Position numbers and translations under genes: made by a program
Shown: positions 14,339-37,221 of the stretch, in pieces
How positions within the stretch are numbered: position 1 is the first letter of the stretch
Layout: each line of letters starts with the position of its first letter
Assembly (NCBI GenBank): GCA_000004695.1
Contig: CM000155.2
Coordinates: forward strand, 2,272,001-2,336,000
Direction: 5' to 3'
Length of the DNA stretch: 64,000 nucleotides
Source of the DNA: Dictyostelium discoideum
Lineage: Eukaryota
Notes under the pieces: generated by a model
Database searches by the model: none
What the model was told of the DNA's origin: nothing
What the model saw: only the letters and a program-made list of their open reading frames with translations

Positions 14339-16074
14339 TTAAAAATTTGAAAAATTTAAATTTTTATTATTATTAAAATCATCTATTATTAAAGGTTTAT
14401 AACCATTAAATGACACACCAAAATTTTTTAAAAATTTATATTGAATGTCGGATAACTTAAATTGGTTTTCAATAACTGTTTGCTGATTTGATTTGTTTCT
14501 TTTTATATTTATTAAATATTCTAATAGAGAGTCATTTTGTAATTTTACAGATGATTTTAAAATTCTAATTAAAAGGTCACAAAATTCATTTTTAGATAAT
14601 AAAATAAAATCAATTAGTTTGATAGTGAAATAGTGATTATTGGATTGAATGAAAATTTCAAATATATATTCAATTTCCTTTTCACAGAAAAAACCAATTG
14701 AAATTAAATATAAAATAACCCTAGGGTTTGAAGCCAATAAATCATGTAATAATCTTTTCTTAAATGAGTTGCTTTTGTTTAAAACCAATTGTTTCTTTAA
14801 ATACTGATCAATAAAAAAGACCCAATTATTATTTATACAAAGAAATAAAATATTTAAAAATTCATTCTTTTCAAATTGAATTTGATTTTCAGAGTTTGAA
14901 ATTTCGGTTGACCACTTTTTTAAAATAAAAGGTAAAAGTTTTTTATTTGATTGATCATTACTTTCAAATAAATGATGATTTAAAGTTTTTGTTTTATATT
15001 CGAAGGTTTTTTTTGAAATGTAATCATTAAAGTATGGAAGACTATTCAATTTATTAAAAAATTTACATCTTGATACTCTGCAAAGAGGAGGTGATTGTAA
15101 TAATCTTTCAAACATATTTTCAAATAGATTTTTATTATCTTGAATCTTTAATGTTTTAACAAAATTCAAATTCAAGTTATTGAATAGTAATTGTTGATCA
15201 TATTTAATTGAGGATTCTAATAAAGCAAAATAATTATATACACTATTAATAATTTGAGATTGATTCTCGATTGAGGTTAATTGAATTTTAAAGTGATCAA
15301 ACCAATAATTTTCAAATAAATAATTTAAAATTTCTTGATGATTTTCATTTGCTACAGATATTAATAAAGTTAGCGGTGGTTTATAATATTTAGTATATAG
15401 TTTTACTAAAGGTAAATCATTTTGAATGGAAAATGTACGATTTGAATCAAAAATCTTTTGAAGATTTATACCATTTTTTAAAAAGAATTGAAACTTTTCA
15501 ACTGTTAAATATTCAGATGATGATAAACCTCTCCATATTGTCGTTGGTGCTTTCTTTGAAAGTTCAATTGCATTTGATAAATCATTATTTATACATGTTG
15601 GTAAAAATTTAATATTATTTATTAATGAATCGAATGCACGAGTTTTTAAAATGTATTGAGCAATACTTGGATCTTTAACTATAATTGAACTGGTATAGGA
15701 ATTCTTTAATTTCTTTATAAAATCATCAGGTAAAGAAATCATAACTTTTAAAAGTACCAACATTGATGATTTCATTAATGAACATGGTCTAATTTTAAAT
15801 TGATCAATGGTTTTAATTGAAACTTTTGTATCATAAACTTTTATTTTCGAATCAAAAGGATCCATATTTGAATTTAATTTTTTCTTAAAAATTTCTAAAA
15901 CCATTTTAAACATAAATTCATCACTGTATTCTATAATCTTTTCTAAAAATGTTAAATTTGAAGAATTTGATTCAAATAAACCAATTTTATTCAATACCAT
16001 AGGTCCAAACTCTTTTGATAATTTCTTTTCAACAATTTTTTCTAAAACTTTAAAAATTGATTCTTCAAAATTTA

Positions 16075-16129
<55 letters not shown>

Positions 16130-16645
16130 GTTATTAGCTTGAGGAGTTATTAAATCTAATAAAATTTTAAATCTTCTTTTAGAATCACAACTTGATGAGA
16201 ATGAAAATTTTTCTAAATTTTTACAATCATAAATTGTTGGATTAAATATATCTACAATAAATTTCAATGTTTCATAATTTTCTATTGAAACTAATAATGA
16301 ATCTAAAGAATTTGAAACTTTTTTAAATTGTTGTTCAATTTCAAATTGAAAAATCTTATAAATCTTGTAAAATATTTGAAAATCTAATTCCTTCCATTTA
16401 AATAATTTATATAAACAATAATAATTAAAATTTATAAAATGTTTATAATTATCTTTTTGAGAATTTTCAAATAAATAATTTAATTTCTCTATTAATAAAA
16501 CTTCATTCTTGGTTTTAATTATTAATGAAAGTGGAAATTCATAATAATTATATGTTAGATAATATTGATTACTAATTTTTAAAAATTGAAAAATTTTTTT
16601 CCTTAAAAATGAATTTCTATAAACTTTAAAAAATAAATCTCCCAT
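14339..16645 (-). CDS. Paralog family member A (uncharacterised Dictyostelium-specific family)
   Basis: 768-aa ORF. N-terminal MGDLFFKVYRNSFLRKKIFQFL...YNYYEFPLSLIIKTKNEVLLIEKLNY, a motif shared with six downstream paralogs. Asn19 tract. Confidence 0.7.
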
Positions 16646-16715
16646 TTTAAATTTGTACTGTGCTTATTTAAAAAAAAAAAAAAAAAAGAAAAAATCAAAA
16701 AAAAAAAAAAAAAAA

Positions 16716-16748
<33 letters not shown>

Positions 16749-17489
16749 TAAAGATTTAATTATTTTATAAATAGAAAATTTAAAAAAAATTATTGTCCTT
16801 TTATTTTAAATTAAATATTAAATAAATAAAAATAAACATATACATATATATTAATTTTTGGTGATTATAAATTCAATCTTTAGCTTTATTACAAAAAAAA
16901 GTGGGTGAAAATAAGAAATTGTTTTTTTTTTATTTTTATTTTTTTTTCATTTTTTTTTTTATTTTTTTTTTAAAAAAGATAAAACATTGTTATTAACTTT
17001 TTTTTTATATCTTAAAATCATTAAGAGTTTCTAATTAAAAAAAAAAAAAAAAATTAAAAATAGAAATAAATAATAATAACTATTTTTTGAAATTATCAAT
17101 CTATTTTTATCTTTTTTTTTTTCAATTATCTAATTTGGGATATCTAAATTAAATTCCAAGATTAAAATAGTGTGTTATTGTTGGTTGATTCAATACCCCA
17201 AAAAAAATAAAAAAAAAAATAATAAAAAATCAGGTTCACTTAGAGACACTAGTTCTCATTAGTCGGGTCATTTTTTTTTTTTATTTCTTAAATTAATTGT
17301 GTTCAATTTTTTTTTTTTTTTTTTTTTTTTTAATAACCTTCTATATTTTGTTAATAAACTTTGAAATGTTCAACTATTTTTTTTTAAAAGTTTAAACTCT
17401 TTTTAATACAAATAAATAATAAAGGGTTATTTTCAAAATAAATTAAAATTAATAATTATTTTTTTTTTTTTTTTTTTTGAAGATAAATT

Positions 17490-19847
17490 TTATTTAAAAG
17501 TTAAAGAATAATTAAAAATAGTATTTAAATTTTTAATGAAAAAATTATAATGTTGAGAAGAAGTTTTTTTTGATAAATAATTAATTTTTGAATTATTAAT
17601 TGATAAATGACCAATTAAAAATAATTTAATTAAAATTTTATGTAAAATAAAACTATTACCTAGTTTTCTTTCTAATGAAATTGAACAAAATGATAAATCA
17701 TTTAAAAAACCACCATTATAAACAGAAATGAACAAAAGTTCAACATTTAAAGAAAAACCAAAAGATTTAATTTGAGAATTTGTAAAGATAATCGAATTTA
17801 AAATTGCAAAACGAATAATATTTAATGCAAAGGTTTTTGATCTCCATTTCGAAAGTCCTTTTAAAATATTTTCATTTGAAATTAATTGAGCAATTACAAA
17901 TTTAGAATTTTTTTTATTTATTTTACTAATTGAACTATAGATTTGACCTAAAATTTCGAAAACCATATTAGATACGATATCAGTATACACCTTTCTCAAT
18001 TGAGAATTGTAAAGCCACTTTCTTGCAGTTCCTGGGTTACTTTTTAACCATGACACAAACTCTGGATTAAATTTAAAATTTAGTATACTAATATCATAGA
18101 TTTTATTATCATCTTCTTGATTAAAAAAAAAAGAAGACCTTTCATCAAGTTCTACATAATGTTGTAAAATTATTGGTGAAATGTAATTAAAAAGGTCAAT
18201 TAAATTACATTGAATTGAATGAATTAACAATAAAATAAGATTTGTTTTAAAAAGTGATGGAGATGATCCATCACCAAAGCATATATTACCATGGTTGATA
18301 ATATTCTCTAAAAAACATTTATGTAATTCTTTATTACTACTACTACTGCCAGATTCAAATGCTTTTTTAATTTGATTATAATTATACTTTTTTGGAAACC
18401 TTTTAAAATAAGATTTTAATGCATTCACATCTTGATTCTTGATAATAACATTAAGAATTTCTAATGGATTATAAAAAAATGGTATTTCTTTTTCAAAAAG
18501 ATTTGATTCTATCATTTCTTTATTAACTGATTGTAAAAAGTAGTAATCAATATATTTGTGTTGTGGGAGTGGTAAAGTCTCAAACTTGACCTGTTCTCTT
18601 TTTCCAATTTTTCTAAGTTGGTAATCACAAACCCAAGAGATTTTAACATTATATAAGTTTTTTAATTCTTCAAAATAATTATCATTTAACCATATTGCTA
18701 CATCTGAATCATATATTAATCTTTGTTTGTGAATTGGTTCTTTATCTCTTTGAAAATATTTCCAGTAAAAATTTTTACATAAAACTTTTACAATATCTAG
18801 GTTAAAACTTTCAAAAATAAATCCAATTGGTATATCGAATGATTCCAATATCGATCTCTCTATACTAATTCCTAATAATTTCACAATTTCATCATTATTT
18901 TCTAATAGTGCTAAAGGTAACTTTGTTGGTGGTAGTGGTGTATATTTATATTTTTCTAATAATAATTTAAGCATAAATTGATCTTGGTATTTACTAATTG
19001 CACTAAATAAATTATTTATTGCTGAATAGAATGGATCATACAATATTTGAAATTTATTTGGGAAATATTCTAAAATTAGTGAACCAAATAGTTTTGATTG
19101 ATTTGTTTTAATTATATACTCTAAATAATGTACCAATTCTCTGAATGATACATCAATTTTTAATTCACTAAGGATGTATCTAAAAATTTCTTTTTTCTTT
19201 TTAATTTCATCATCATCATCATCATCATCACCATTTACTGTTCTTTTAAATTTATCAAACATTTTAAATATTGGTTCTATATCTATGGTTTCAATTTCGA
19301 GATACTTATTATTTATCAAGTATTTAAGTTTCTTTAAATCACAAATACCAATTATAATTGAATTATAATCAATTCTAACCAATCGAGCTATATATGGACT
19401 ATTATAATTTAATTTATTATGATATTTAATTTCCTTATTGGTTTTTTTAATTTGTTTATTAATTTCTGTTATTTCATTTTTAAATGTTTCAAAAACAATT
19501 TCAAATAATTCAAATGGTAATTCCCTCCATTTATATAATCTTTTTAAACAATATTCACTAAAATTTAAAAAATGTTTACTTTCTATTATTGATTTATTAT
19601 TATTATTATTATTATTATTTTTAAAATATTTATTATAATTATTTATTTTTTCAATTAATAATGGTTGATTTTTTGTTTTTAATATTAATTCAAGTGGGAA
19701 ATCATAATAGTTATATCCAATATATGTTTGTTCTTTATTGTGTTGTGTAATATATGAATAGATTTTATTGATTAAATATTTATTTTTGAATACTTTATAA
19801 AATAAAAAATCCATTTTCATGTTTGGGTTGGGGGAGAAAATGATCAT
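17490..19847 (-). CDS. Paralog family member B
   Basis: 785-aa ORF. The track ORF starts at 19847 (MIIFSPNPNMKMDF...). The family-consistent start is the Met at 19814 (MDFLFYKVFKNKYLINKIYSYI...YNYYDFPLELILKTKNQPLLIEKINNY). Confidence 0.7.
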   Translation of the reverse strand: MIIFSPNPNMKMDFLFYKVFKNKYLINKIYSYITQHNKEQTYIGYNYYDFPLELILKTKNQPLLIEKINNYNKYFKNNNNNNNNKSIIESKHFLNFSEYCLKRLYKWRELPFELFEIVFETFKNEITEINKQIKKTNKEIKYHNKLNYNSPYIARLVRIDYNSIIIGICDLKKLKYLINNKYLEIETIDIEPIFKMFDKFKRTVNGDDDDDDDEIKKKKEIFRYILSELKIDVSFRELVHYLEYIIKTNQSKLFGSLILEYFPNKFQILYDPFYSAINNLFSAISKYQDQFMLKLLLEKYKYTPLPPTKLPLALLENNDEIVKLLGISIERSILESFDIPIGFIFESFNLDIVKVLCKNFYWKYFQRDKEPIHKQRLIYDSDVAIWLNDNYFEELKNLYNVKISWVCDYQLRKIGKREQVKFETLPLPQHKYIDYYFLQSVNKEMIESNLFEKEIPFFYNPLEILNVIIKNQDVNALKSYFKRFPKKYNYNQIKKAFESGSSSSNKELHKCFLENIINHGNICFGDGSSPSLFKTNLILLLIHSIQCNLIDLFNYISPIILQHYVELDERSSFFFNQEDDNKIYDISILNFKFNPEFVSWLKSNPGTARKWLYNSQLRKVYTDIVSNMVFEILGQIYSSISKINKKNSKFVIAQLISNENILKGLSKWRSKTFALNIIRFAILNSIIFTNSQIKSFGFSLNVELLFISVYNGGFLNDLSFCSISLERKLGNSFILHKILIKLFLIGHLSINNSKINYLSKKTSSQHYNFFIKNLNTIFNYSLTFK
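19818..19845. repeat. Inverted-repeat arm 1 (CATGTTTGGGTTGGGGGAGAAAATGATC)
   Basis: Its reverse complement lies at 20190-20216. Arm 1 overlaps the 5' end of family gene B. Confidence 0.85.
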
Positions 19848-20189
19848 TTTTATTTTTTTTTTTTTTTTTTTATTTTTTTTTTTTTTTTATTAATTTATTA
19901 ATAAAAATTTTTTTTTTTTAACTTATTTTTTATTTTTTATTTTTTTATTTTTTTTTTTTTTTTTGTGATTTAATTTTATTTTTAGTATGAATTTAGTGGA
20001 GAGAACTCAAAATACACACGATATAATATATAAAAATTAATGTAATCATTCTGTTTATTTTTTTTGTTTTTTTTTTTTTATTTTTAGAATTCAATTATTT
20101 ATCATTCTTTTTTTTATGTAATTGTTTTTTTTTATTTTGAAAAGAGAGGGAATATATTTTATATCAATGATAAAAAAAAAAAAAAAAAA

Positions 20190-20216
20190 GATCATTTTCT
20201 CCCCCAACCCAAACAT
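20190..20216. repeat. Inverted-repeat arm 2 (GATCATTTTCTCCCCCAACCCAAACAT)
   Basis: Perfect 27-bp reverse complement of 19819-19845, flanked by complementary A/T homopolymers. Sits just 3' of the stop of family gene C. Confidence 0.85.
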
Positions 20217-20228
20217 TTTTTTTTTTAT

Positions 20229-20631
20229 TTAAAATTTTAATTTATTAAAATTTTTATTAAAAATAGTAATATTGTTATAACTAGCATTATGTATCATTGA
20301 AAAAGAAAATAATGCATTGATTTCTGGAAATTTATTTGTTGATGATATTGTTCTTAATAAACAATTATCTACATTTTTAAATGACATATATCCATTAAAA
20401 AACATTTTAATTAAAATTTTATGAAATACAAATCCTTTACCATTATTTTTATCCAAAAATGGTCTACAACATAATATTTCATTAATACTATTTTCATAAA
20501 ATGATTTTACCAAATTTTCATCATCGAAACCAAATGATTTGAATTGATTATCTGAATCTAAAACAATACCATTAATAACAGCAAAACGAATGATATTTAA
20601 AGGAATATTTTTCAAATCCTTTTTATTTTCA

Positions 20632-20669
<38 letters not shown>

Positions 20670-20673
20670 TTTA

Positions 20674-20768
<95 letters not shown>

Positions 20769-22702
20769 TTTATGATTATTATTATTAATATTTTCATACA
20801 TAATTTGATTTGATGTTAATTCTCTAATGATAAACTTTGAATCTGATTTTAAAGTTTTATTAATAATTTTATAATCAACTTTTTCATTTAAAATTTGAAA
20901 GACAGTGTGTGATAATGCATCAAAATAAAATGATTTTAAATGTGAATTGAAAAACCATTTTCTTGAGATATTATTATTTTTAGCACTTTTTAAACATTTA
21001 ATAAATTGGTGATTATATATAAAATCTTTTAAAGTAATCTTTTCATTATTCTTTATTGCTAATGAAATAAAATTAAAAAGTTCAAAAGAACCATAATCAA
21101 CACATGAAGCCAAAAATGAAATAATTGAATTCATATTATGATTTTTTGGAAAATTACAATTAAATATATTTTCTATAAAACAATTAAATAATTGTTTATT
21201 TCCACTATAAAATGCACTATTAACTTGATCGAAATTGTAATAATTTGGAAAAATATTAAAATAAGCAATCAATACTTCAACATTTTCTTCCTTTATTATA
21301 ATATCAACTAATGATGTTAAAAATGAATATTTATTATGAAGTTGTGCTAAAATTGAATATTCATTATAATTATTATTATTATTATTATTATGCTGTTGTA
21401 CTAAAAATTGTTCAGACTCTATCATTTCTTTATTGATAAAATCAAAATAACAATTTGCAATATATTGAAAAGTTTCAAATTTAACCTGTTCCCTTTTATT
21501 ATTGATTCTTAAATGTAAATCACATAGACATGAGATTTTAATTTCGTTTTTCTTTTTTTTTAATAATAAAAAATAATTATCACTTAAAAACAATGCAATT
21601 TTAGGGTCATATATTATTTGAATAGTTGAATTTCTATAAAATCTATCTGTTGTTTCATTGAATAAACTTGATTTTAATGCTTCACAAAGTACCTTTACAA
21701 TTTCTAAATCAAAATTGTTTAAAATAAATTCAAGTGGAAAATTCATTGCTTCTAAAGTTGATTTACTTATTCTAATACCTAACAATGTAAAAATTTCTGA
21801 TTCAGTTGTTGGTGTTAGTGTTGGTGTTGCTGTTGGTGGTGCAAGTGTTGTTGTTGTTGTTGTTTTTGTTGATGATGATGGTGGTGCAGGTGTTGTTGGT
21901 GCAAGTGTTGTTAGTGTTGGTGTTGGTGGTGGGGGTGGTGGTGGTGTTGGTGTTGTTGGTGGCGCAAGTGTTGTTAGTGTTAGTGTTGGTGTTGGTGTTG
22001 GTGTTGGTGTTGGTGTTGGTGTTGGTGTTGGTGGTGTTGGTGGTGTTGGTGGTGGTGTATATTTATATTTTTCTAATAATAATTTAAATATATATTGGTC
22101 TTTGTATTTAGAAATTATTTGAAATACATTGGTTAATTGATTATGTATAATTGGTAATTCTTTTGGGAATAAATCTATAATTTGTTTTCCAAAAATTTTC
22201 GATTGATCTTTAATCATAATTTCACATAAATATGTTGTTAATTGAGTAAATGATAAATCAATTTTAGATTCGTTTATTAAATATTGAAATATTTCTTTTA
22301 ATTTTATTTCTTCATCATGATGATCATGATTCACTTGGATTCTATAAATCATTTTTCTTTTTCTTTTTAATTTTCTTGAATGTATTAAACTAAAAACTGA
22401 ATTGATATTGATTGACTCAGTTTCGAGTAATTGATTATTTATTATATATTTGAGTTTATCTAAATCTCCATTAATGATTAGATAACTATGGTATAGTATT
22501 TTTTCTTTTCCATATTTATTTATTTTAATTTTTCCAATTATTTTTTCAATTTCTTTTTTAAATGTTTGAAAAATAAGTTCAAATAATTCTAATGATAATT
22601 CACTCCATTTATATAATAGTTTTAAACATTGTTCATTAAATGTTAAAAAATGTTTACTATTTAATATTGATATTTCTGAATATTTATTATTTTTATTATT
22701 AC

Positions 22703-22760
<58 letters not shown>

Positions 22761-22955
22761 TATAAAATATTTAATATAATTATTTAATTTTTCAATTAAT
22801 AATGGTTGATTCTTTGTTTTTAAAACAAGTTCTAATGGGAAATCATAATAGCTGTATCTGATTAATCTTTGTTCTTTATTATACTCTGAAATATATGAAT
22901 AGATTTTTTTCTTTAAATAAATATTTTTAAAAACCTGACTGAATAATAAATCCAT
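20229..22955 (-). CDS. Paralog family member C (expanded Pro/Thr linker and poly-Asn)
   Basis: 908-aa ORF. About 90% identical to members D and E outside the low-complexity inserts. PTPTPT...TTLAPP linker of about 130 aa. N55-like tract (ATT)n at 20640-20790. Confidence 0.75.
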
Positions 22956-23095
22956 TATATATATATAAAATAATATGTTGCTAGTTAAAAAAAAAAAAAA
23001 AAGAAAAAGAAAAATGAAAAATGAAAAAAAAAGTTTTTATAAATATATTTTTTTTTTTTTTTTTGATAAATTCTCAAAAAAAAAAAAAAACAAAA

Positions 23096-23103
23096 TCCCA
23101 CAA
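23096..23103 (+). promoter_or_regulatory. DUSE-like box (TCCCACAA) upstream of a Class I RNA gene
   Basis: Matches the Dictyostelium upstream sequence element consensus [AT]CCCA[CT]AA. About 75 nt upstream of the GTTGAC stem start. Confidence 0.55.
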
Positions 23104-23178
23104 CCAAAAATAATAAAATATGTATCACGATATATATTAATAATTATAAAAATAATTAAATGTGCAAAAACACAAATA

Positions 23179-23242
23179 AGTTGACCTTACAGCAATCTTA
23201 ACAATTTTATCACATTATAAAAAAAAACCTCAGTCAACTGTA
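23179..23242 (+). ncRNA. Class I small ncRNA gene (copy 1)
   Basis: aGTTGAC-CCTTACAGCAA-tcttaacaattttatcacattataaaaaaaaacctca-GTCAACt. The 5' and 3' ends form a 7-bp stem (AGTTGAC/GTCAACT), with the conserved 11-nt Class I motif CCTTACAGCAA directly after the 5' stem. Length about 60 nt. Confidence 0.65.
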
Positions 23243-23608
23243 TAAAGTGATAAATTTTTTTAAGTTCCTAACTTCCGAATATTAAGAGAGGTCCGAGGTT
23301 CGAAACTCCGTATAGTAACCAATAAAAGTGACCCAAATGGGGCTCAGCTTAGTTGTAGGCCCACTAAAGCTAAAAACTACAAAAAACAATTTGAATCACC
23401 CAAAAACCAAAAACCAATCAAAAAAAAAAAAAAAAAGATTTAAAAAAAGAATGGAAAAAAAGTTATACATAACTTTTTTTTATTTAAAATTTTAATTTAT
23501 TAAAATTTTCATTAAAAATAGAAATATTATTATAACTAGAATTACGTATCATTGAAAAAGAAAATAAGGCATTGATTTCTGGAAATTTATTTGTTGATGA
23601 TAATGTTC

Positions 23609-25951
23609 TTAATGAACGATTTCCTTTATCTTTAAATGACATATATCCATTAAAAACATTTTAATTAAAATTTTATGAAATACAAATCCTTTACCATTAT
23701 TTTTATCCAATAATTGTTTACTACATAATATTTCATCAATACTATTTTCATATAACGATTTTACTAAATCTTCATCATCGAAACCAAATGATTTGAATTG
23801 GTTATCTGAATCTAAAACAATACCATTAATAACAGCAAAACGAATGATATTTAAAGGAATATTTTTCAAATCCTTTATATTTTCATTATTATTATTAATA
23901 TTATTATCATTATTATTACAATACATAATTTGGTTTGATATTAATTCTCCAATGATAAACTTTGAATCTGATTTTAAAGCTTTACGAATAATTCCATAAT
24001 CAACTTTTTTATTTAAAATTTGAAAGACTGTATGTGATAATGCATCAGAATAAATTGATTTTAAATGTGAATTGATAAACCATTTTCTTGAGATATTATT
24101 ATTATTTTTTGCACTTTTTAAACATTTAATAAATCGATAATTATTAATAAAATCATTTAAAGTAATCTTTTCATTATTCTTAATTGTTAATGAAATAAAA
24201 TTAAAAAGTTTAAAAGAACCATAATCGATACATGAAGCCAAAAATGAAATAATTGAAATTATATTATAATTGTATGGAAAATTACCATTAAATATATTTT
24301 CTATAAAACAATTAAATAATTGTTTATTTCCACTATAAAATGCACTATTAACTTGATCGAAATTGTAATAATTTGGAAAAATACTAAAATGAGCAATCAA
24401 TACTTCAACATTTTCTTCCTTTATTATAATATCAACTAATGATGTTAAAAATGGATATTTATTAAAATTAATTTGCTGTTGCGCTAATAATGAATTATTA
24501 TAATAATTATTAATATTATTATTATTTTGTCGTGCTAAAAATTGTTCAGACTCTATCATTTCTTTATTGATAGTATCAAAATAACAATTTAAAATATATT
24601 GAGAAGTTTCAAATTTAACCTGTTCCCTTTTACCAATGATTCTTAATTGTAAATCACATAGCCATGAGATTTTAATTTCATTTTTCTTTTTTTTTAATAA
24701 TAAAAAATAATTATCACTTAAAAACAATGCAATTTTAGGGTCATATATTATATGATTAGTTGGGCATGTATTGAATTTATCTGTTGTTTCATTGAATAAT
24801 CTTGATTTTAATGCTTCACAAAGTACCTTTACAATTTCTAAATCAAAATTGTTTAAAATAAATTCAAGTGGAAAATTCATTGCTTCTAAAGTTGATTTAC
24901 TTATTCTAATACCTAACAATGTAAAAATTTCTGATTCGGTTGTTGTTGATGTTGCTTTTGTTGCTGTTGTTGGTGGTACAAGTGTTGGTGTTGGTGTTTG
25001 TGTTGGTGTTGGTGTTGGTGTTGGTGGTGTTGGTGGTGTATATTTATATTTATCTAATAATAATTTAAATATATATTGATCTTTAAATTTAGAAATTATA
25101 TCAAATACATTGGTTAATTGCTTATGTATGATTGGTAATTCTTTTGGAAATAATTCTATAATTTGTTTTCCAAATATTTTCGATTGATCTGTAATCATAA
25201 TTTCACATAGATATGTTGTTAATTGAGTAAATGATAAATAAATTTTATATTCATTTATTAAATATTGAAATATTTCTTGTAATTTTATTTCTTCATCATG
25301 ATTCACTTGGATTGTAATTTCAGAACGAATCATTTTTCTTTTTCTTTTTAATTTTCTTGAATGTATTAAACTAAAAACTGAATTGATATTGATTGACTCA
25401 GTTTCGAGTAATTGATTATTTATTATATATTTGAGTTTATCTAAATCTCCATTACTGATTAAATTAATATGGTGTTGTATTTTTTCTTTTCCATCTTTAT
25501 TTATTTTTTTAATTTTTCCAATTATTTCTTCAATTTCTTTTTTAAATGTTTGAAAAATAAGTTCAAATAATTCTAATGATAATTCACCCCATTTATATAA
25601 TAGTTTTAAACATTGTTCATTAAATGTTAAAAAATGTTTACTATTTAATATTGATATTTCTGAATACTGATTATTATCGTTATTATTATTATTTTTATTA
25701 TTACTATTATTATTATTTTTTTTTTTATTACTATTATTTTTATTATTATTATTATTTTTAAAATATTTATTAAAATTATTTAATTTTTCAATTAATAATG
25801 GTTGATTCTTTGTTTTTAAAACGAGTTCTAATGGGAAATCATAATAGTTATATCTGATTAATCTTTGTTCTTTATTATACTCTGAAATATATGAATAGAT
25901 TTTTTTCTTTAAATAAATATTTTTAAAAACCTGACTGAATAATAAATCCAT
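23609..25951 (-). CDS. Paralog family member D (C-terminus altered by a 1-nt deletion)
   Basis: 780-aa ORF. Collinear with C and E up to ...GKGFVFHKILIKMF, then a frame change (ttaaaaacatttt versus E ttaaaaaacaattt) gives a short aberrant tail. DNA homology continues 3' of the new stop. Confidence 0.7.
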   Translation of the reverse strand: MDLLFSQVFKNIYLKKKIYSYISEYNKEQRLIRYNYYDFPLELVLKTKNQPLLIEKLNNFNKYFKNNNNNKNNSNKKKNNNNSNNKNNNNNDNNQYSEISILNSKHFLTFNEQCLKLLYKWGELSLELFELIFQTFKKEIEEIIGKIKKINKDGKEKIQHHINLISNGDLDKLKYIINNQLLETESININSVFSLIHSRKLKRKRKMIRSEITIQVNHDEEIKLQEIFQYLINEYKIYLSFTQLTTYLCEIMITDQSKIFGKQIIELFPKELPIIHKQLTNVFDIISKFKDQYIFKLLLDKYKYTPPTPPTPTPTPTQTPTPTLVPPTTATKATSTTTESEIFTLLGIRISKSTLEAMNFPLEFILNNFDLEIVKVLCEALKSRLFNETTDKFNTCPTNHIIYDPKIALFLSDNYFLLLKKKKNEIKISWLCDLQLRIIGKREQVKFETSQYILNCYFDTINKEMIESEQFLARQNNNNINNYYNNSLLAQQQINFNKYPFLTSLVDIIIKEENVEVLIAHFSIFPNYYNFDQVNSAFYSGNKQLFNCFIENIFNGNFPYNYNIISIISFLASCIDYGSFKLFNFISLTIKNNEKITLNDFINNYRFIKCLKSAKNNNNISRKWFINSHLKSIYSDALSHTVFQILNKKVDYGIIRKALKSDSKFIIGELISNQIMYCNNNDNNINNNNENIKDLKNIPLNIIRFAVINGIVLDSDNQFKSFGFDDEDLVKSLYENSIDEILCSKQLLDKNNGKGFVFHKILIKMFLMDICHLKIKEIVH

Positions 25952-26088
25952 TTAATATATTAATAGGTTGTTAATCAAAATAAAAGAAAAAAAAAAGAAA
26001 AAGAAAAAAAAAGTTTTTTTAATTTTTTTTTTTTTTTTTTGATAAATTCTCAAAAAAAAAAAAAAAATAAAAAAAAGAGGAAAGAAAA

Positions 26089-26096
26089 TCCCACAA
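26089..26096 (+). promoter_or_regulatory. DUSE-like box (TCCCACAA), copy 2
   Basis: Same spacing (about 75 nt) to the second Class I RNA. Confidence 0.55.
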
Positions 26097-26170
26097 CCAA
26101 AAATTATAAATATTTATCAGGATATATATTAATTATTTTAAAAATAATTAAATGTGCAAAAACACAAATA

Positions 26171-26233
26171 AGTTGACCTTACAGCAATCTTAACAAAATT
26201 TTTTCTGAATAAAAAAACCTAAGTCAACTGTAT
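26171..26233 (+). ncRNA. Class I small ncRNA gene (copy 2)
   Basis: AGTTGAC-CCTTACAGCAA-tcttaacaaaattttttctgaataaaaaaacctaa-GTCAACTgtat. A partial copy of the 3' half (aaaacctaagtcaactgtatc) recurs at 26321-26345. Confidence 0.65.
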
Positions 26234-26559
26234 CTTTTATAAAATTTTTTCTAAAACCTAAGTCTTTTTTTTTTGAATTGGATAACGCAATTATTATTTG
26301 CTTCTCCTTGAGGTTATTCTAAAACCTAAGTCAACTGTATCTTTATAAAATTTTTTAAGGTTCGAACTCCCAAGCTAAAGATGTCCTAGGTTCGAAACTC
26401 GGTCACGAATCAAATTAATGTGACCCAAAATGGGGCTCACCTTGTTGTAGTCTTACTAAAGCTAAAAACAATCAAACCACCCAAAAACAGTAAAAAACTA
26501 AAAACCAACCAACATTCAAATTTAAAAAAGAATGGAAAAAAGTTATATATAAATATATT

Positions 26560-26982
26560 TTAAAATTTTAATTTATTAAAATCTTCATTAAAAATAGTAA
26601 TATTGTTATAATTAGCATTACGTATCATTGAAAAAGAAATTAATGCATTGATTTCTGGAAATTTATTTGTTGATGATAATGTTCTTAATAAACGATTTCC
26701 TTTAACTTTAAATGACATATATCCATTAAAAAACAATTTAATTAAAATTCTATGAAATACAAATCCTCTACCATTATTTTTATCCAATAATGGTCTACTA
26801 CATAATATTTCATTGATACTATTTTCATAAAATGATTTTACCAAATTTTCATCATCGAAACCAAATGATTTGAATTGAATATCTGAATCTAAAACAATAC
26901 CATTAATAACAGCAAAACGAATGATATTTAAAGGAATATTTTTCAAATCCATTTTATTTTCATTATTATTTTCATTATTGTA

Positions 26983-27072
<90 letters not shown>

Positions 27073-29019
27073 ATATATAATTTGGTTTGATGTTAATTCT
27101 CTAATGATAAACTTTGAATCTGATTTTAAAGCTTTATGAGTAATTCTATAATCGACTTTTTTGTTTAAAATTTGAAAGACAGTATGTGATAATGCATCAA
27201 AATAAAATGATTTTAAATGTGAATTGATAAACCATTTTCTTGAGATATTATTATTACTTTTAACACTTTTTAAACATTCAATAAATTGATAATTACTAAT
27301 AAAATATTCTATACTAATATTTTCATTATTCTTTATTGTTAATGAAATAAAATTAAAAAGTTTGAAAGAACCATAATCGATACATGAAGCCAAAAATGAA
27401 ATAATTGAAAATATATTATAATTGTATGGAAAATTACCATTAAATATATTTTCTATAAAACAATTAAATAATTGTTTATTTCCACTATAAAATGCATTAT
27501 TAACTTGATTGAAATTGTAATAATTTGGAAAAATATTAAAATAAGCAATCAATGCTCCAACATCTTCTTCCATTACTATAATATCAACAAATGATGTTAA
27601 AAATGAATAATTATTATTATAATAATTATTATGCTGTTGTGCTAAAAATTGTTCAGACTCTATCATTTCTTTATTGATAAAATCAAAATAACAATTTGCA
27701 ATATATTGAGAAGTTTCAAATTTAACCTGTTCCCTTTTACCAACGATTCTTAATCGTAAATCACATAGCCATGAGATTTTAATTTCGTTTTTCTTTTTTT
27801 TTAATAATAAAAAATAATTATCACTTAAAAACAATGCAATTTTAGGGTCATATATTATTTGAATAGTTGAATTTGTATTAAATTTATCTGTTGTTTCATT
27901 GAGTAATCTTGATTTTAATGCTTCGCAAAGTACCTTTACAATTTCTAAATCAAAATTGTTTAAAATAAATTCAAGTGGGAAATTCATTGCTTCTAAAGTT
28001 GATTTACTTATTCTAATACCTAACAATGTAAAAATTTCTGATTCGGTTGTTGTTGGTGTTGGTGTTGGTGTTGGTGTTGGTTTTTTTGTTGGTGTTTGTG
28101 GTGGTACAAGTGTTGGTGTTGGTGTTGGTGGTGGTGTTGGTGGTGTTGGTGGTGGTGTATATTTATATTTATCTAATAATAATTTAAATATAAATTGGTC
28201 TTTGTATTTAGAAATTATTTGAAATACATTGGTTAATTGATTATGTATAATTGGTAATTCTTTTGGAAATAATTCTATAATTTGTTTTCCAAATATTTTC
28301 GATTGATCTTTAATCATAATTTCACATAAATATGTTGTTAATTGAGTGAATGATAAATCAATTTTTGATTCTTTTATTAAATATTGAAATATTTCTTGTA
28401 ATTTTATTTCTTCATCATGATGATCATGATTCACTTGGATTGTAATTTCAGAACGAATCATTTTTCTTTTTCTTTTTAATTTTCTTGAATGTATTAAACT
28501 AAAAACTGAATTGAAGTTGATTGATTCAGTTTCGAGTAATTGATTATCTATTATATATTTGAGTTTATCTAAATCTCCATTACTGATTAAATTAATATGG
28601 TGTTGTATTTTTTCTTTTCTATATTTATTTATTTTTTTAATTTTTCCAATTAATTTCTCAATTTCTTTTTTAAATGTTTGAAAAATAAGTTCAAATAATT
28701 CTAATGGTAATTCACTCCATTTATATAATAGTTTTAAACATTGTTCATTAAATGTTAAAAAATGTTTACTATTTAATATTGATATTTCTGAATACTGATT
28801 ATTATTATTATTAATATTATTATTTTTAAAATATTTATTATAATTATTTAATTTTTCAATTAATAATGGTTGATTCTTTGTTTTTAAAACGAGTTCTAAT
28901 GGGAAATCATAATAGTTATATCTGATAGATCTCTGTTCTTTATTATACTCTGAAATATATGAATAGATTTTTTTCTTTAAATAAATATTTTTAAAAACCT
29001 GACTGAATAATAAATCCAT
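26560..29019 (-). CDS. Paralog family member E
   Basis: 819-aa ORF with an intact family C-terminus (...NNITIFNEDFNKLKF*). Confidence 0.75.
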
Positions 29020-29087
29020 ATTATATATAAAAAAAAAAAAGAAAAAGAAGTTTTTTTTTTTTTTACAAATTGTTGTAGGGAATTTTC

Positions 29088-29157
29088 AATAAAATTTCAC
29101 TACAGTAGCGTAGTGAATTTTATTATTTAATTTCACTACAGTAGCGTAGTGAAAAAA
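29088..29157 (+). repeat. Two direct copies of a 23-bp hairpin-capable motif (ATTTCACTACAGTAGCGTAGTGAA), spaced 40 bp apart
   Basis: Each unit contains the 6-bp inverted repeat CACTAC...GTAGTG around AGTAGC. Lies next to the retroelement remnant. Confidence 0.7.
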
Positions 29158-29580
29158 AAAAATCACTGACCCTAAATTTTTTTTTTTTTCAAAAAACAAA
29201 TAAAGTTTATTAAATTATTATCTTTTATTTGAATATTAGCTCTATTTAAGGTTTTTTAATTTTTTTTTTTTAATTTAATTTTTTTTTTTTTTAATTTAAT
29301 TTTTTTTTTTTTTTTTGCGCCAAAATTTTTTTTTTTTTTCCCCAACAAAACTTTTTTTTTTTTTTTTTTTTTTTTTATTTTCATTTTCCCAAAATGAAAC
29401 AAGATAAATTATTTAAAATTTATTGAAGATAATAATTTTGAAAATACTAAACATAAAAATTATAAATTTTTACATGATGAGTAAATATTTTTCCTTACCA
29501 TAACACAATCATTTTTTAAATTCTGACCAATAAAAAACAGAAACAGAAAAGAAAAATTATTTAGAATTGAAAAAAAAGTC

Positions 29581-30424
29581 ATGAATTGTGGCGGAGATAG
29601 AAATATATCAAAAGAAGTGTGTTTAGAAGTAATTAATGATTATAGAATGGTATCACTCTGGGAAGAAATGCATAAAGGTCATATAGGAAGAGATGCAACC
29701 TATGGGAACTACAAGACTAAATATTATAATATGGGATTGTATTCTTTTGTATCTGATGCAGTAGATACGTGTGACATTTGCCAACGAAATAGAATAAAAG
29801 GTTTGGTATCAATCATTTTTTATATGATGTTTTGTAACTTTTATATTAAAACTCTGTGAAAGTATGGCACTGCGATAATGGACGTGAATTTAAAAACAAA
29901 GTCCAAAAAGAATTCCTAAAACTTTTTCCAGGCTCCAAGTCAGCACATGGAGCTCCTCGTACACCAACAACTCAAGGTATGGTAGAAAGATTGAATCGAA
30001 CTATCAAGGAGAGGATCTCAAAATTAAAACAACAAGAGTATGATATTGTGAACAATATAAATTATCGATATGTTTATTAATTAATCATTTATAAATAAAT
30101 TTTAGTTTTCTTGATGGTACTTCTAGGTCTCTTTCTGAACTATTAAAACAAGCTTTGTATGATTACAATAATACAAAAACAAGAACAATTAAAATGACAC
30201 CATCTCAAGCTGTTGGTATTGTTCCTTTGTTTATTAATGTTCAATCAGAACAAGACTCTCAATCAATTGGTGTTTCAGATGTTTCAAAAGAAGAAAGAAC
30301 AGCTATTATTCTTGAAAATCTCACAAGTTACCAAAATCAATGGAATTCAAAACCACCAAAGGGATTGAAAGTTGGTGATACTGTACTCTTTCTAGAAATT
30401 AAAAAAAATAATGTAAGTAATTAA
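29581..30424 (+). mobile_element. Degenerate LTR-retrotransposon (Ty3/gypsy-type) integrase remnant
   Basis: Three broken ORFs. (1) HHCC zinc finger: H-KGH-IGRDATYGNYKTKYYNMGLYSFVSDAVDTCDICQ. (2) C-terminal half of the rve core: WHCDNGREFKN...GAPRTPTTQGMVERLNRTIKERI. (3) C-terminal SH3-like region (GLKVGDTVLF). The DD part of the DDE triad is missing and the reading frames are broken. Confidence 0.7.
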
Positions 30425-30479
30425 AACATAAAGATTAATAATATATGAAACAGTAATAATTATCAAATTTTATATTTAA

Positions 30480-30698
30480 TTCTAATAGATAATATTGATT
30501 TTAGGTATAATAATAAGGGGGTTCTGGAAGACACTATACTGCTCTATAAACTTGAGTTTTTGGAAGACGGACTAATCGCCTGAATACAAGGTCATACTCT
30601 GTGTTGGNGAAGGGAACAAACCATGGATGTTTATAACATGCGAACTTGATATTGTTAGAGCATTGTCCTCATACATGAAGATACNGACTCTTTTACTT
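30480..30698 (+). other. GC-richer non-coding block adjoining the integrase remnant (possible LTR or UTR fragment), running into the assembly gap
   Basis: Composition differs from the AT-rich spacer. Bounded by the N-run. Confidence 0.25.
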
Positions 30699-30802
30699 CT
30701 GGNNNNNNNNNNNNNNNNNNNNNNNNNNNNNNNNNNNNNNNNNNNNNNNNNNNNNNNNNNNNNNNNNNNNNNNNNNNNNNNNNNNNNNNNNNNNNNNNNN
30801 NN
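30699..30802. other. Assembly gap (N run)
   Basis: 104 N. Confidence 1.
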
Positions 30803-31127
30803 TATTAAAAGTTTCAAAATCTAATTCCTTCCAAACTAGTAATGATTTTAAACATTCTTTATTAAAATCTAAATAATATTTGGTAATGATACTACTACTG
30901 CTAATGACTTCATCATCATTTGATTCACCTTTGATTATATATTTATTATAAAATTTAATTTTCTCTAATAGTAATATTTGATTTCTACTCTTTATTACCA
31001 TCTCTAATGGGAATTCGTAAAAATTATATGTTAAATATAATAAACTCTCATTATATTGTCTAATAAATTTAAATATAATATTATTTAAATAATTATTTTT
31101 AAAAACACTAAAAAATAATGTATCCAT
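30803..31127 (-). CDS. Paralog family member F, N-terminal fragment; the 3' part is lost to the gap and retroelement
   Basis: MDTLFFSVFKNNYLNNIIFKFIRQYNESLLYLTYNFYEFPLEMVIKSRNQILLLEKIKFYNKY... The likely start Met is at 31127-31125. The ORF runs into the N gap. Confidence 0.55.
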
Positions 31128-31390
31128 TGAAAAATGTAAAAAAAAATGCAAAAAATAAAATAATGATGTGTTTTTTCTCCCAAAAATAATAATAATAAAA
31201 AAAAAAAAATTTAAAAATCTTGCAAATATCCAATTAAAAAAAAAAAAAAATTTTTTTTTTATTTTAAAATCTATACTTTTTTAGATAAATAAAGAGTACT
31301 TATAATAATAATACTCTTTATTCTTCAAAATAAAAAAAATGAACGATAAATAATTTAATTGTAAAAATAAACTTTTTGGTTGAAAAAAAA

Positions 31391-33155
31391 TTATTTAAAT
31401 AAAAATGGTTTAAAAACTTTTATTCTTTTTAATCTATCAATATAAATAATTCTATCTTGGTAATTTAATTTTGAAATAACAGAAATTAAATATGATTGAT
31501 ATGTTAAATAAATTCGATAATTAATTTCTTGACTATTATTTTTGAAGAAATTTGAATTATTAGCAACTTCTAATAAATAATTAAATGGATAATCATTTTC
31601 TAAAAGTGATGAAAATAGTAATAATAAATGTAATTGTTTTTTATAGATAACCATTGATGTAAACTGTTTATTATTATTATATTTTGAAAGTAATTTTGGA
31701 ATTATTAAATTGAAAATATTAAATTCATCAATTTCATTACATTCACTAAAATATTTGATAACGTTCATGTCTAGCTCTAATAATAAAGTTTGATAAATCT
31801 CATCAGAGTATTGATTAATTAATAATTCCAATGATTGATAATCGTTTAAAGCAAGTAGACATTTTTTAATTGATAATTTTGAAAAGAATATATATCCATC
31901 AAATTTTATTAAAAACTTTAATTGATTAATTCCAATATATTCACAATCTTTTGAAAAATCCCACCTCAACTGTTCATTTGAAAAAAGTTGGATATTTTGA
32001 TTTAATATTTTATTATTTGATATACTTGAATATGTTAAATAAAATGGTGGATTTTTAACACTACTACCACTATCACTATCACCACTTCCACTACTATTAC
32101 TATTACTATTATTATCAATTTTATTTTGATCAATAGAGTCATATATCATTAAATTTAAATGATTTTTTAATAGATATAGTGATATATATGGGTCAGAGAT
32201 TATGATTCTATTATTTTTTGATGAACTATAATTATAAATGATATTTGGGAATGGTAATTGAAATTCTCTATTGTCTTGATGATCTTTTATAACTAATTCG
32301 TCAAAAAATCCATAAAATAATGAATTTGATTTATAGATTAATAAATAATCAATATCTAATAAATCTATAACCATTTTATTAAATTTAACTTGATATTCAG
32401 TTTTTTCAAATAGATATCTTGGTGGTGGCGGTGATGATGACGATGATGATGATGATGATAATGATGATGATGATGATGATGATAGGTCAATATTATATAG
32501 TTGAACAATTTTTAATATTAATAATTTTATCATTTCTCTATCACCTTTTTCCAATGATATTGATGTTAAATTATATATTTGTTCTATTTTATTTTGATAA
32601 CCACCTATAATTGAAGGTTTCTCTAATTTTTCAATGAAAAATTTACCGTATCGATTTGTTGAATTTTCTTTTACTATCTTTATTAAAATTGTACAAATTA
32701 TACGATTTGTTATTAAAGGTAGTTTGGTAATTGATAATGAAGATAGAAAATCGAAAAATTCAATAACTTGTTCCATTGGGTATGTTGGATTTGAAAATAT
32801 ATCTATCGAATAATTAGCTAAATAATTTGAAAGCATTGATTTAAATACTCGATTTCTTTCTTCTTCTATCTTTAGTGGTGGTGGTGGTGATTGTAGTAAT
32901 GATGATTGTAGATATGGGAGTGGGTATGGTAGTGAATTTAATAAAAATAATTTCAATATTCCAATATTTTCATTTTCAATTAAATCTTGAAAATATTTTG
33001 GATTATCATACATTTCTAGTGACTGAATTTCATTTTCAAATGTTTTAAAAATTAATTTAACAATTTCTGAATCAACTCTCTTCCATTTAAATAAATATCT
33101 TAAACAATCTTTATCTATTTTTAATAAATTTTCATTTTCTATTATTGTTATTTTA

Positions 33156-33238
<83 letters not shown>

Positions 33239-33430
33239 TGTATTATTATGTAATTTTATTTTTTCAATTAATAGGTGTTGATTTTTAGTTTTAATTATTG
33301 ATAATAATGGAATTTGATAATAGTTGTAAGTTTTTGTATATAAAAGTGATTTATTTATTTGTTTTATTTTTAAAAAAATTAATGACCTTAAATATATATT
33401 CTTAAAAACTTTAAAAAAAATATCATCCAT
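31391..33430 (-). CDS. Paralog family member G (divergent)
   Basis: 679-aa ORF. MDDIFFKVFKNIYLRSLIFLKIKQI...YNYYQIPLLSIIKTKNQHLLIEKIKLHNN. Asn29 tract, a Ser-rich run, PPPP. Confidence 0.7.
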
Positions 33431-34938: not shown

Positions 34939-35299
34939 ATGTCTGATGATTATGAACTAAAGGAATTGCAGCCGCCTGAGGGTGCGAACTGCAATTATAA
35001 TATCAATACACCTCAATATGAAAATAACAACAATAATAATAATAATACAAGTGGTAATGAATCACCAAATATTTTAAATAGTGAAAATCAATTCAATCAA
35101 GTTGCAAATGAATTAGAAAATGATTCAAAACAATTCTTTTCAAATCAAGACCCTGAAATGAATGTTGAACATTCTAATGTTGCACAAAATGAACAAGATT
35201 TTAAACTACGTAGTTATTTTGAAAATTCTCAACGTATTGCTTTAGGAAATGGTCAAAAACCAAAGAAAATGGGTATTTCAATTAGAAATTTAACAGTTG
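34939..35299 (+). CDS. ABC transporter G family (PDR-type, full-size), exon 1
   Basis: N-terminus ...[12 protein letters not shown]. Donor GTAAAT at 35300, phase 1. Confidence 0.75.
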
Positions 35300-35529
35300 G
35301 TAAATATTTTTTATTATTTTCATTCGAAATTTCAAATTTTATTTTTATTTTCATTTTTTTTTTATTTTTTTTTTTTTTTTAAAAATATCTTTTTTTTGAT
35401 TTGATTGTTTTGATTGTTTTTTATTTTATTTATTATTATTTTAAAACTAATATTTATTTTATTTATTTATTTATTTATTTATTTTATTTTATCTATTTTA
35501 TTTATTTTTTTATTATAATTAATTTTTAG

Positions 35530-35840
35530 TTGGAAAAGGTGCAGATATATCAGTAATTTCAGATTTATCAACACCATTTGTAACTATTTTTAATTTATTT
35601 AGACCATCAACATGGAGGAAATCAAGTGGTAGCACATTTGATATCTTACATGATGTTACTTTATTTAACCGAGATGCTGAAATGCTTTTAGTATTAGGTC
35701 GTCCAGGCGCTGGCTGCTCAACATTATTACGTGTAATTTCAAACCAACGTAGTTCTTATGTTAGTGTATCAGGTGATGTAACTTATGGTGGTATTAACTC
35801 TGATGAATGGAAAAATTTTAAGGGTGAAAGTATTTATACT
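35530..35840 (+). CDS. ABCG transporter, exon 2 (NBD1 Walker A)
   Basis: Acceptor TAG at 35527-35529. [13 protein letters not shown]...[19 protein letters not shown]. Donor GTATGT at 35841, phase 0. Confidence 0.75.
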
Positions 35841-35847
35841 GTATGTA

Positions 35848-35878
<31 letters not shown>

Positions 35879-35988
35879 TTTTTTTTATTTTTTTTTTATT
35901 TTTTAAAAATGCATAAAAAAATTATTTAAAATATTTATTTATTGTTTTTATTATTATTGTTATTATTATTATTTTAAAAATAATGTAG

Positions 35989-36159
35989 CCAGAAGAGGAT
36001 ACTCATCATCCAACATTAACAGTTCGTGAAACATTGAATTTTGCATTAAAATGTAAAACTATTCATAATCGGTTACCAGATGAAAAGAAAAAAACTTTTA
36101 GAAAAAAAATTTATGATTTATTAGTAGGAATGTTTGGTATTTCAAAACAATCTGATACT
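35989..36159 (+). CDS. ABCG transporter, exon 3
   Basis: Acceptor TAG at 35986-35988. [19 protein letters not shown]... Donor GTAAAT at 36160. Confidence 0.7.
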
Positions 36160-36272
36160 GTAAATATTTAATATTTAATAATATTATTTTATTTTATTTT
36201 TTTTATTTTTTTTATTTTTTTTTTTTTTTTCTAAACATTTTTTTTTTTTTTTTTTTTAAAAAAATATTAAAG

Positions 36273-36392
36273 CTTGTAGGTAATGAATTTATTAGAGGCT
36301 TATCAGGTGGTGAACGTAAAAGATTAACCATTACTGAAGCAATGGTATCATCTGCTTCAATTACTTGTTATGATTGCTCAACACGTGGTCTT
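36273..36392 (+). CDS. ABCG transporter, exon 4 (ABC signature)
   Basis: Acceptor AG at 36271-36272. [25 protein letters not shown]...CYDCSTRGL. Donor GTATGT at 36393. Confidence 0.7.
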
Positions 36393-36471
36393 GTATGTTT
36401 TAATAATTTTTAAAAATTATTTATACAATCATAATTATTTATTAACTTTTTTTTTTTTTAAAAAAAAAAAG

Positions 36472-37128
36472 GATGCTGCATCAGCATTAGATTATGCAAA
36501 ATCAATTCGTATTATGTCAGATACATTACATAAAACAACAATTGCATCATTTTATCAAGCATCAGATTCAATTTTTAATTTATTTAATAATGTTGCAATT
36601 TTAGAAAAGGGTAGATTAATTTATTTTGGACCAGTTGGTTTAGCAAAACAATACTTTCTTGATTTAGGATTTGATTGTGAACCACGTAAATCAACACCTG
36701 ATTTTTTAACTGGTGTAACTAATCCACAAGAACGTAAAGTACGTCCAGGTTTTGAAGGTCGTGCACCAGAAACTTCATCAGATTTTGAAAAAGCTTGGAA
36801 ATCTTCTGATCTCTATCAAGTTATGCTTCAACAACAATTGGAATATGAAAAAAAGATTGAATTGGAACAACCATCAACTAATTTCATTGAACAAATTAGA
36901 AATGAAAATAGTAAAACCAATCCAACAAAATCAATTTATACAACATCTTATTTCACTCAAGTTAGGGCATTAATAGCAAGAAATTCTCAAATCATTTGGG
37001 GTGATAGATTTGCATTGATTTCAAAATATATTTCAATCATTGTTCAAACATTTGTTTATGCTTCATTATTTTATAATATGAAATCTGATGTTACTGGTTT
37101 ATTTAACAGAGGTGGTGCAATTTATGCT
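36472..37128 (+). CDS. ABCG transporter, exon 5
   Basis: Acceptor AG at 36470-36471. [15 protein letters not shown]...[28 protein letters not shown] (PDR family). Donor GTAAGT at 37129. Confidence 0.75.
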
Positions 37129-37221
37129 GTAAGTAAATTAATTAAAAATTAATTATTAAAAAAAAAAAAAAAAAAAAAACAAATTTTAATTGTAATCTAT
37201 TATTATTATTATTATTTTAAG

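Follow-up and report, generated by a model that had tools for sequence, protein, structure and literature searches.

Evidence for a non-autonomous Tdd-4 DNA transposon beside an assembly gap in a tandem gene array of Dictyostelium discoideum

Background

TDD-4 and TDD-5 were described as cut-and-paste DNA transposons of Dictyostelium with a transposase that resembles the integrases of Gypsy elements, and TDD-4 was reported to be 3,839 bp long, with terminal inverted repeats, 5-bp target site duplications (TSDs) and termini of the form TGTNR (Bao, Kapitonov & Jurka 2010; PMC2836005). In this work, we analyzed a stretch of 64,000 nucleotides from D. discoideum (contig CM000155.2 of assembly GCA_000004695.1, positions 2,272,001 to 2,336,000 of the forward strand), which is referred to as the window and which contains a tandem family of paralogous genes. 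Between the family members E and G, the window contains an integrase-like coding sequence, a run of Ns and a fragment of another member, gene F, and an earlier note, made from the sequence alone, had taken this arrangement for a decayed Ty3/gypsy-type retroelement whose insertion destroyed or truncated one paralog. Our comparisons lead us, with high confidence, to a different reading, in which a non-autonomous Tdd-4 copy is located in the spacer upstream of E, positions 29071-30702 of the window represent its left 1.6 kb, and the rest of the element, together with intact paralogs, lies in the gap.

Tdd-4 reportedly has terminal inverted repeats of 145 bp, six introns and SPXX repeats. The element has been known since 1999, a more recent assembly has already resolved this locus, and the finding is an ordinary one. 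Its biological significance is small and its value is mainly for annotation. An integrase-like open reading frame (ORF) in Dictyostelium should not be labeled a Ty3/gypsy remnant by default, and apparent frameshifts in such ORFs are possibly introns. For this window in particular, the 100-N gap conceals about 14 kb with four intact members of the tandem family, a pseudogene label for F is unwarranted, and the sequence of the 200 bp preceding the gap should not be trusted.

Assignment to Tdd-4

The transposase peptides encoded in the window were compared with the TDD4 and TDD5 core sequences provided in Additional file 1 of Bao, Kapitonov & Jurka 2010 (PMC2836005). Their identity to TDD4 (XP_629668) was 100% over 48 residues and 97.2% over 107 residues, whereas their identity to TDD5 was 56-62%, and that to the integrases of the elements bearing reverse transcriptase (RT) in L003, one of the sequences used for comparison, was approximately 31% and restricted to the zinc finger. 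Because of these differences, the element was assigned to Tdd-4, and Tdd-5 was rejected as its identity. In the Pfam scan, the score for Integrase_H2C2 was 37 bits, above the cutoff of 25.5, and the matches to rve and rve_3 were partial. The homologues retrieved by protein search were hypothetical proteins of Dictyostelium only. The earlier note was correct in that a mobile element with an integrase-type enzyme was inserted here, but the class that it proposed, Ty3/gypsy, was wrong.

The complete element, 3,426 bp in length, is available in a gap-free long-read assembly of D. discoideum (GCA_054883475.1, contig JBTAPE010000034.1). All of its ORFs of at least 60 residues were listed, and a Pfam scan of the two large ones without resemblance to integrases gave no domain; no RT, RNase H or protease was found in the complete element. 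By contrast, RVT_1 and RT_RNaseH were matched by genes in L001 and L003 that encode an RT.

When the element is set against the described systems, it is most similar to Tdd-4 (Ginger2/TDD superfamily; Wells 1999; PMC2836005), with which it shares, in addition to the nearly identical transposase (97-100%), the HHCC plus DDE integrase-like architecture, inverted termini of the form TGTNR...CA, a 5-bp TSD, an intron-containing coding sequence and a C-terminal exon with an SPXX-type repeat tract. The present copy differs from the 3,839-bp reference in that it is shorter, has lost approximately 0.4 kb together with the first catalytic Asp, and has a 17-bp deletion in exon 1. Tdd-5 (TDD-5, AF298206) is a further member of this superfamily and is organized in the same way, and related copies are P0002, P0003 and P0007; however, the conserved core of the window element shows only the lower identity given above. 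The Ty3/gypsy elements of Dictyostelium, Skipper, DGLT-A and DGLT-P, have in common with the window element the HHCC plus DDE integrase fold family, TG...CA ends and short TSDs, whereas the window element has no long terminal repeats (LTRs), gag, RT or RNase H, and has inverted-repeat ends, introns and no adjoining tRNA gene.

Termini and insertion site

In the gap-free assembly, the element begins with TGTTGTAGGG and ends with CCCTACAACA, and thus has TG...CA ends. The left terminus at 29071 is TGTTG, which fits the TGTNR rule, and the right end has the inverted form, ...CAACA. When the left and right ends in the long-read assembly were compared, they were found to be inverted copies of each other, not direct repeats, and to form nearly perfect terminal inverted repeats of approximately 146 bp, of which the left one alone is present in the window. 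Furthermore, another copy, in L003, has the element's first 310 bp in inverted orientation at its right end, and the homology with an independent copy, in L002, begins exactly at window positions 29068-29071. The pentamer CAAAT is found on both sides of the element in the gap-free assembly as a 5-bp target duplication.

The insertion point is 51 bp upstream of the ATG of gene E. When the empty site was rebuilt by joining these 51 bp to the right flank and removing one CAAAT, the resulting sequence could be aligned without interruption to the paralogous spacers between D and E and between C and D, and these unoccupied spacers run straight through the insertion site, with ..ATAAAT directly followed by TCTCAAAA.. 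in both. Therefore, the element was inserted cleanly into an AT-rich intergenic spacer and did not hit a gene, in disagreement with the earlier proposal that a paralog was destroyed or truncated by the insertion.

The two direct hairpin repeats that had been noticed earlier were found as described. They are exact copies of the 25-nt sequence AATTTCACTACAGTAGCGTAGTGAA (Table 1), and each includes an 8-bp inverted repeat, TTCACTAC/GTAGTGAA. No match of this kind was found in shuffled sequences (0 of 100 shuffles), and folding of the region gave z = -5.9. The complete element has four copies of the 25-mer, two in each inverted repeat, and we regard them as putative transposase-binding sites.

Table 1. 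Coordinates of the Tdd-4 copy, the scaffold gap and the fragment of gene F in the window
Feature	Positions	Strand	Remarks
Left TSD copy, CAAAT	29066..29070	.	Same pentamer directly after the right end in the gap-free assembly
Left terminal inverted repeat	29071..29216	+	Starts TGTTGTAGGG; weaker similarity extends to ~29380; inverted copy at the right end (long-read assembly; L003)
First 25-nt hairpin-containing subterminal repeat	29093..29117	+	
Second 25-nt hairpin-containing subterminal repeat	29129..29153	+	
Transposase exon 1	29394..29480	+	ORF ends after 10 codons owing to a 17-bp deletion at 29403/29404; aligned to L002
Intron 1, GT-AG, 60 nt	29481..29540	+	Frame stays open on removal
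Exon 2, HHCC (H2C2) zinc-binding domain	29541..29800	+	Integrase_H2C2, 37 bits; peptide 100% identical to TDD4
Intron 2, 5' remnant	29801..29855	+	Ends at deletion junction 29855/29856; alignments with L002 and L006
Exon VKVWHCDNGREF...QGMVERLN	29856..30037	+	Second Asp and Glu of the DDE triad
Intron, GT-AG, 68 nt	30038..30105	+	Splicing restores ...KLKQQDFLDG...
Exon FLDGTSRS...KVGDTVLFLEIKKNN	30106..30412	+	97-98% identity to the TDD4 reference and P0004
Intron, GT-AG, 76 nt	30413..30488	+	
Long C-terminal exon, start; GC-richer block	30489..30702	+	Reads as low-quality contig-end sequence
Scaffold gap, 100 N	30703..30802	.	14,178 bp in the gap-free assembly
Gene F, first 108 codons from the ATG, open into the gap	30803..31127	-	Equals the N-terminus of KAM9944473.1

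Structure of the transposase gene

The earlier note described a decayed integrase in three shifted frames. The integrase-type coding sequence is present, and the first Asp of its DDE triad is indeed missing; however, the shifts result mostly from splicing, as they correspond to three GT-AG introns and one internal deletion of 0.4 kb. When the three introns that are complete (Table 1) were removed and the deletion junction was bridged (29800 to 29863), a single open frame of 270 residues was obtained. For example, the sequence that is restored by removing the 68-nt intron is exactly that of the TDD4 reference. P0004, which is also nearly identical to the exon downstream of this intron, is DDB_G0282919 of strain AX4.

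The copy is nevertheless defective, as had been proposed. The internal deletion extends from within the intron that follows ...QRNRIKG to just before VKVWHCDNG, and its size is 380 bp when compared with the slightly shortened L006 copy and 413 bp when calculated from the lengths of the reference and the present copy (3,839 - 3,426). The alignments with L002 and L006 showed that the sequence encoding ITKDFAP...FGKP was lost, including the first catalytic Asp, and the DDE triad is thus incomplete. In addition, the 17-bp deletion after 29403 shifts the frame of exon 1, at a position where L002 is intact. The long-read assembly shows both lesions at this locus, with an identical deletion junction, and they must therefore be considered real. 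The frameshift in exon 1 and the loss of the first catalytic Asp make this copy non-autonomous, and its length is 3,426 bp, not the approximately 3.8 kb with an intact transposase that would characterize an autonomous copy. The L002 copy is truncated and rearranged, and therefore did not provide a full-length reference.

The long C-terminal exon of the complete element contains an SP-rich repeat tract, which we take to be the SPXX repeats of the original description of Tdd-4. The AlphaFold2 model of the C-terminal region, in which the earlier note had seen an SH3-like tail, had a low predicted local distance difference test (pLDDT) score of 34.

The sequence before the gap

The earlier note also described a GC-richer block running into a gap of 104 N. 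Such a block is present, with a GC content of 36% at 30483-30702 versus 26% just upstream, but the gap consists of 100 N, and the raised GC content is private to the assembly from which the window was taken. The identity between this assembly and the long-read assembly was 97-100% up to approximately 30500 and decreased to 72-75% solely in the 200 bp that border the gap, where the GC content was 36% versus 28%. Furthermore, there is 94-96% agreement among the long-read locus and two further copies of Tdd-4, from which the window alone departs, with small insertions and deletions, in-frame stops and two single Ns (30608 and 30685). The window differs at approximately 27% of the positions in the block, and the changes are mostly from A/T to G/C or from A to T. 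The block is colinear with the C-terminal exon of Tdd-4 (...EDTKQLYKLEFLEDG...DIDSFTSG). For this reason the possible match to an LTR that had been raised for 30480-30698 was rejected; this stretch is Tdd-4 coding exon, most likely with miscalled bases. It appears most likely that the block as a whole represents miscalled bases at a low-coverage contig end, since mismatches occur in these final 200 bp only, Ns are present, and the variant is private to the assembly of the window.

Elsewhere in the Tdd-4 copy, the two assemblies show a few substitutions (for example, KEERTAI vs KEEITAI) and differences in homopolymer length at 30201-30300 and 29201-29400, and are 100% identical outside these segments.

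The assembly gap and gene F

On contig JBTAPE010000034.1, genes E and G encode proteins identical to those of the window. The window could be aligned to this contig at 99.70% identity on one side of the gap (43451-30803) and at 99.33% on the other (30702-16547), and both alignments reach the exact edges of the gap. Between these edges, the long-read contig contains 14,178 bp, which comprise the remaining 1.8 kb of Tdd-4 and four uninterrupted ORFs of the family, encoding 816 residues (81-84% identity to E), 785 residues, 792 residues and, in the case of F, 863 residues. The suggestion that the gap hides more repetitive sequence was thus borne out. One of these hidden members, that of 785 residues, is inverted in orientation relative to the others.

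In the gap-free assembly, F is an uninterrupted ORF of 863 codons (L004 12304-14895; annotated KAM9944473.1), and its first 108 residues are identical to the fragment in the window, which had been correctly recognized earlier as the first 108 or so codons of a family gene on the minus strand. The right contig end is 100% identical to the long-read sequence. Because the ORF is open to the edge of the gap and continues as 863 codons in the gap-free assembly, F is not truncated; it is the assembly, rather than the transposon, that interrupts it. The array is not broken, and the gap is an assembly failure in repeated DNA. In the gap-free assembly of this locus, the gap closes on an intact F, an outcome that the earlier note itself had named as refuting its reading. 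A search for homologues of the 108-residue fragment of F found nothing, which was due to the word-index sensitivity of the tool, since KAM9944473.1 was in the collection searched.

Discussion

The possibility that a decayed Ty3/gypsy LTR retrotransposon of the Skipper, DGLT-A or DGLT-P type truncated F, possibly drawn to this site by a tRNA gene, would be consistent with the presence of an HHCC finger and an rve-type core and with the stop of F at the gap in the window, and TG...CA ends, 5-bp TSDs and integrase-like enzymes are common to LTR elements. However, this explanation is hardly credible: the terminal repeats are inverted and not direct, the complete 3.4-kb element has no RT, RNase H or protease, GT-AG introns are found in its coding sequence, and its transposase is 97-100% identical to that of TDD4 versus approximately 31% for the integrases of LTR elements. 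Furthermore, the insertion site is the spacer upstream of E, and the gap-free assembly has an intact F. DGLT-A elements insert near tRNA genes. The tRNA gene that had been pointed out at 14132 was confirmed as tRNA-Gln(UUG) (14132-14204) and is the sole tRNA gene in the 64 kb, but it plays no role here because it is approximately 15 kb from the element and because tRNA genes are not targets of this DNA transposon. It might alternatively be considered that the coding sequence is an integrase-derived host gene that has been domesticated, which would explain the introns without a mobile element and would be in line with the canonical GT-AG splice sites and with homologues that are annotated only as hypothetical proteins. 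This is extremely improbable, because the terminal inverted repeats, the TSD and the paralogous empty site show transposition, because there are several dispersed copies, some of them truncated or with nested repeats, and because the present copy is frameshifted and lacks a catalytic residue.

Two further explanations concern the window's assembly. The strain from which the window was derived might truly differ, so that the 14 kb are absent, F was truncated by a rearrangement beside Tdd-4, and the run of Ns represents a small true gap. The two assemblies are independent, tandem arrays of paralogs vary in copy number, and the divergent 200 bp before the gap could be a real breakpoint. A run of 100 N, however, is the conventional placeholder for a gap of unknown size, and the run in the window has exactly this length. 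Moreover, each of the contig ends stops in the middle of a feature (an exon of Tdd-4 and the ORF of F, respectively) that is seamless in the other assembly, and the flanks are 99.3-100% identical, with the same insertion and the same private lesions; a true strain difference is thus very unlikely. We attach somewhat more weight, although still little, to the possibility that the GC-richer block at 30483-30702 is genuine, either as a diverged Tdd-4 variant that arose by gene conversion or as a read from another copy that was mistakenly joined. In favor of this alternative, the last 14 bases of the block are free of errors, and the mismatches do not rise steadily toward the end. In contrast, the agreement of the long-read locus and two other copies at 94-96%, with the window alone deviating by approximately 27% and showing insertions, deletions, stops and Ns, favors miscalling, and the spectrum of changes is that expected of random miscalls in AT-rich DNA.

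Several points weigh against the reading of the locus as a non-autonomous Tdd-4 copy that continues into the gap, or against parts of it. The window itself includes neither the element's right end nor the second TSD copy, and both were seen in the second assembly. This gap-free assembly is possibly that of another isolate, and therefore what the gap contains in the strain of the window is inferred, though strongly; the insertion and its private lesions are common to both assemblies, and the contig ends of the window continue seamlessly in the long-read contig. The perfect match of the last 14 bases before the gap is unusual for a decaying read tail, and because of it we retain, as a minor alternative to miscalling, that the block could be a mis-joined or otherwise corrupted read. 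The binding of transposase to the 25-mers and the mobilization of the copy in trans, which are considered below, are presumed. Finally, a 3.4-kb deleted class of Tdd-4 is said to have been reported when the element was first described, and if this is correct, the deletion in the window copy may not be new either.

With Tdd-4 as the identity of the element, the present structure probably arose as follows. The element would have arrived by cut-and-paste integration catalyzed by a DDE transposase that makes a 5-bp staggered cut, and its insertion upstream of E duplicated the pentamer CAAAT, with the four 25-mers probably serving as binding sites for the transposase. Because the copy carries two inactivating lesions, it would now be mobile only with transposase supplied in trans from a full-length Tdd-4.

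It is doubtful that the 3.4-kb deletion derivative is more than dead weight, whether through a dominant-negative protein or in the sense that it originated by the loss of a nested element, but two observations are of relevance. The deletion junction permits an in-frame splice from 29800 to 29863, and if this splice is used, the resulting protein would retain the HHCC finger and the DNA-binding part at the C-terminus but not the first catalytic Asp, and it could be a dominant-negative regulator of Tdd-4 transposition. In addition, no more than 2 bp separate the deletion's right breakpoint from the site at which a 748-bp dispersed repeat is nested in the L006 copy of Tdd-4, and the deleted class might therefore stem from imprecise loss of the nested element. 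A change in the expression of E, caused by the insertion 51 bp upstream of its ATG, is a separate possibility of low probability.

The 748-bp repeat has inverted ends (CACAGCG...GCTGTG) and tRNA-like internal stretches, and it is nested in other Tdd-4 copies and absent from the window. It was located at L006 6205-6952, and also at 3706-4453, 1-511 and 12239-12638 of the same sequence, at L002 7520-7928, and at L003 2083-2545 and 9733-10236. L002 also contains an inverted duplication of at least 431 bp (6000-6430 and 9276-9706; 98% identical) around a truncated fragment of Tdd-4, and one arm of this duplication abuts the left end of Tdd-4 while the other arm is unoccupied.

Other features of the window

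The window is very AT-rich (approximately 22% GC), and its proteins matched only sequences from Dictyostelium in the protein search. A second gap of 100 N is located at 48575-48674, and further single Ns are present at 3993 and 49335; the sequence adjoining them may be as unreliable as that at 30483-30702.

The tandem family extends over 14339-33430 of the window on the minus strand, and is also found at L004 12304-20575 and L005 3747-6197. It has at least 10 paralogs of 680-910 residues, which have in common an N-terminus of the type MDxLFxxVFKNxYL...YNYYDFPLE and poly-Asn and Pro/Thr-rich tracts, and the proteins of A, E, F and G had no domain in the Pfam scan. On the plus strand, Gly/Val-rich ORFs at 21658-22122, 24771-25079 and 27899-28222 are antisense to the Pro/Thr repeat tracts of the family genes C, D and E, and are almost certainly artefacts of repeat composition. 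The tRNA-Gln(UUG) gene has no adjoining transposon in the window and lies in the short spacer that separates family gene A from an ORF with its end at 13852. Downstream of the array, a gene for an ABC transporter of the PDR/ABCG type is located at 34939-39642, and its introns split it into several ORFs.

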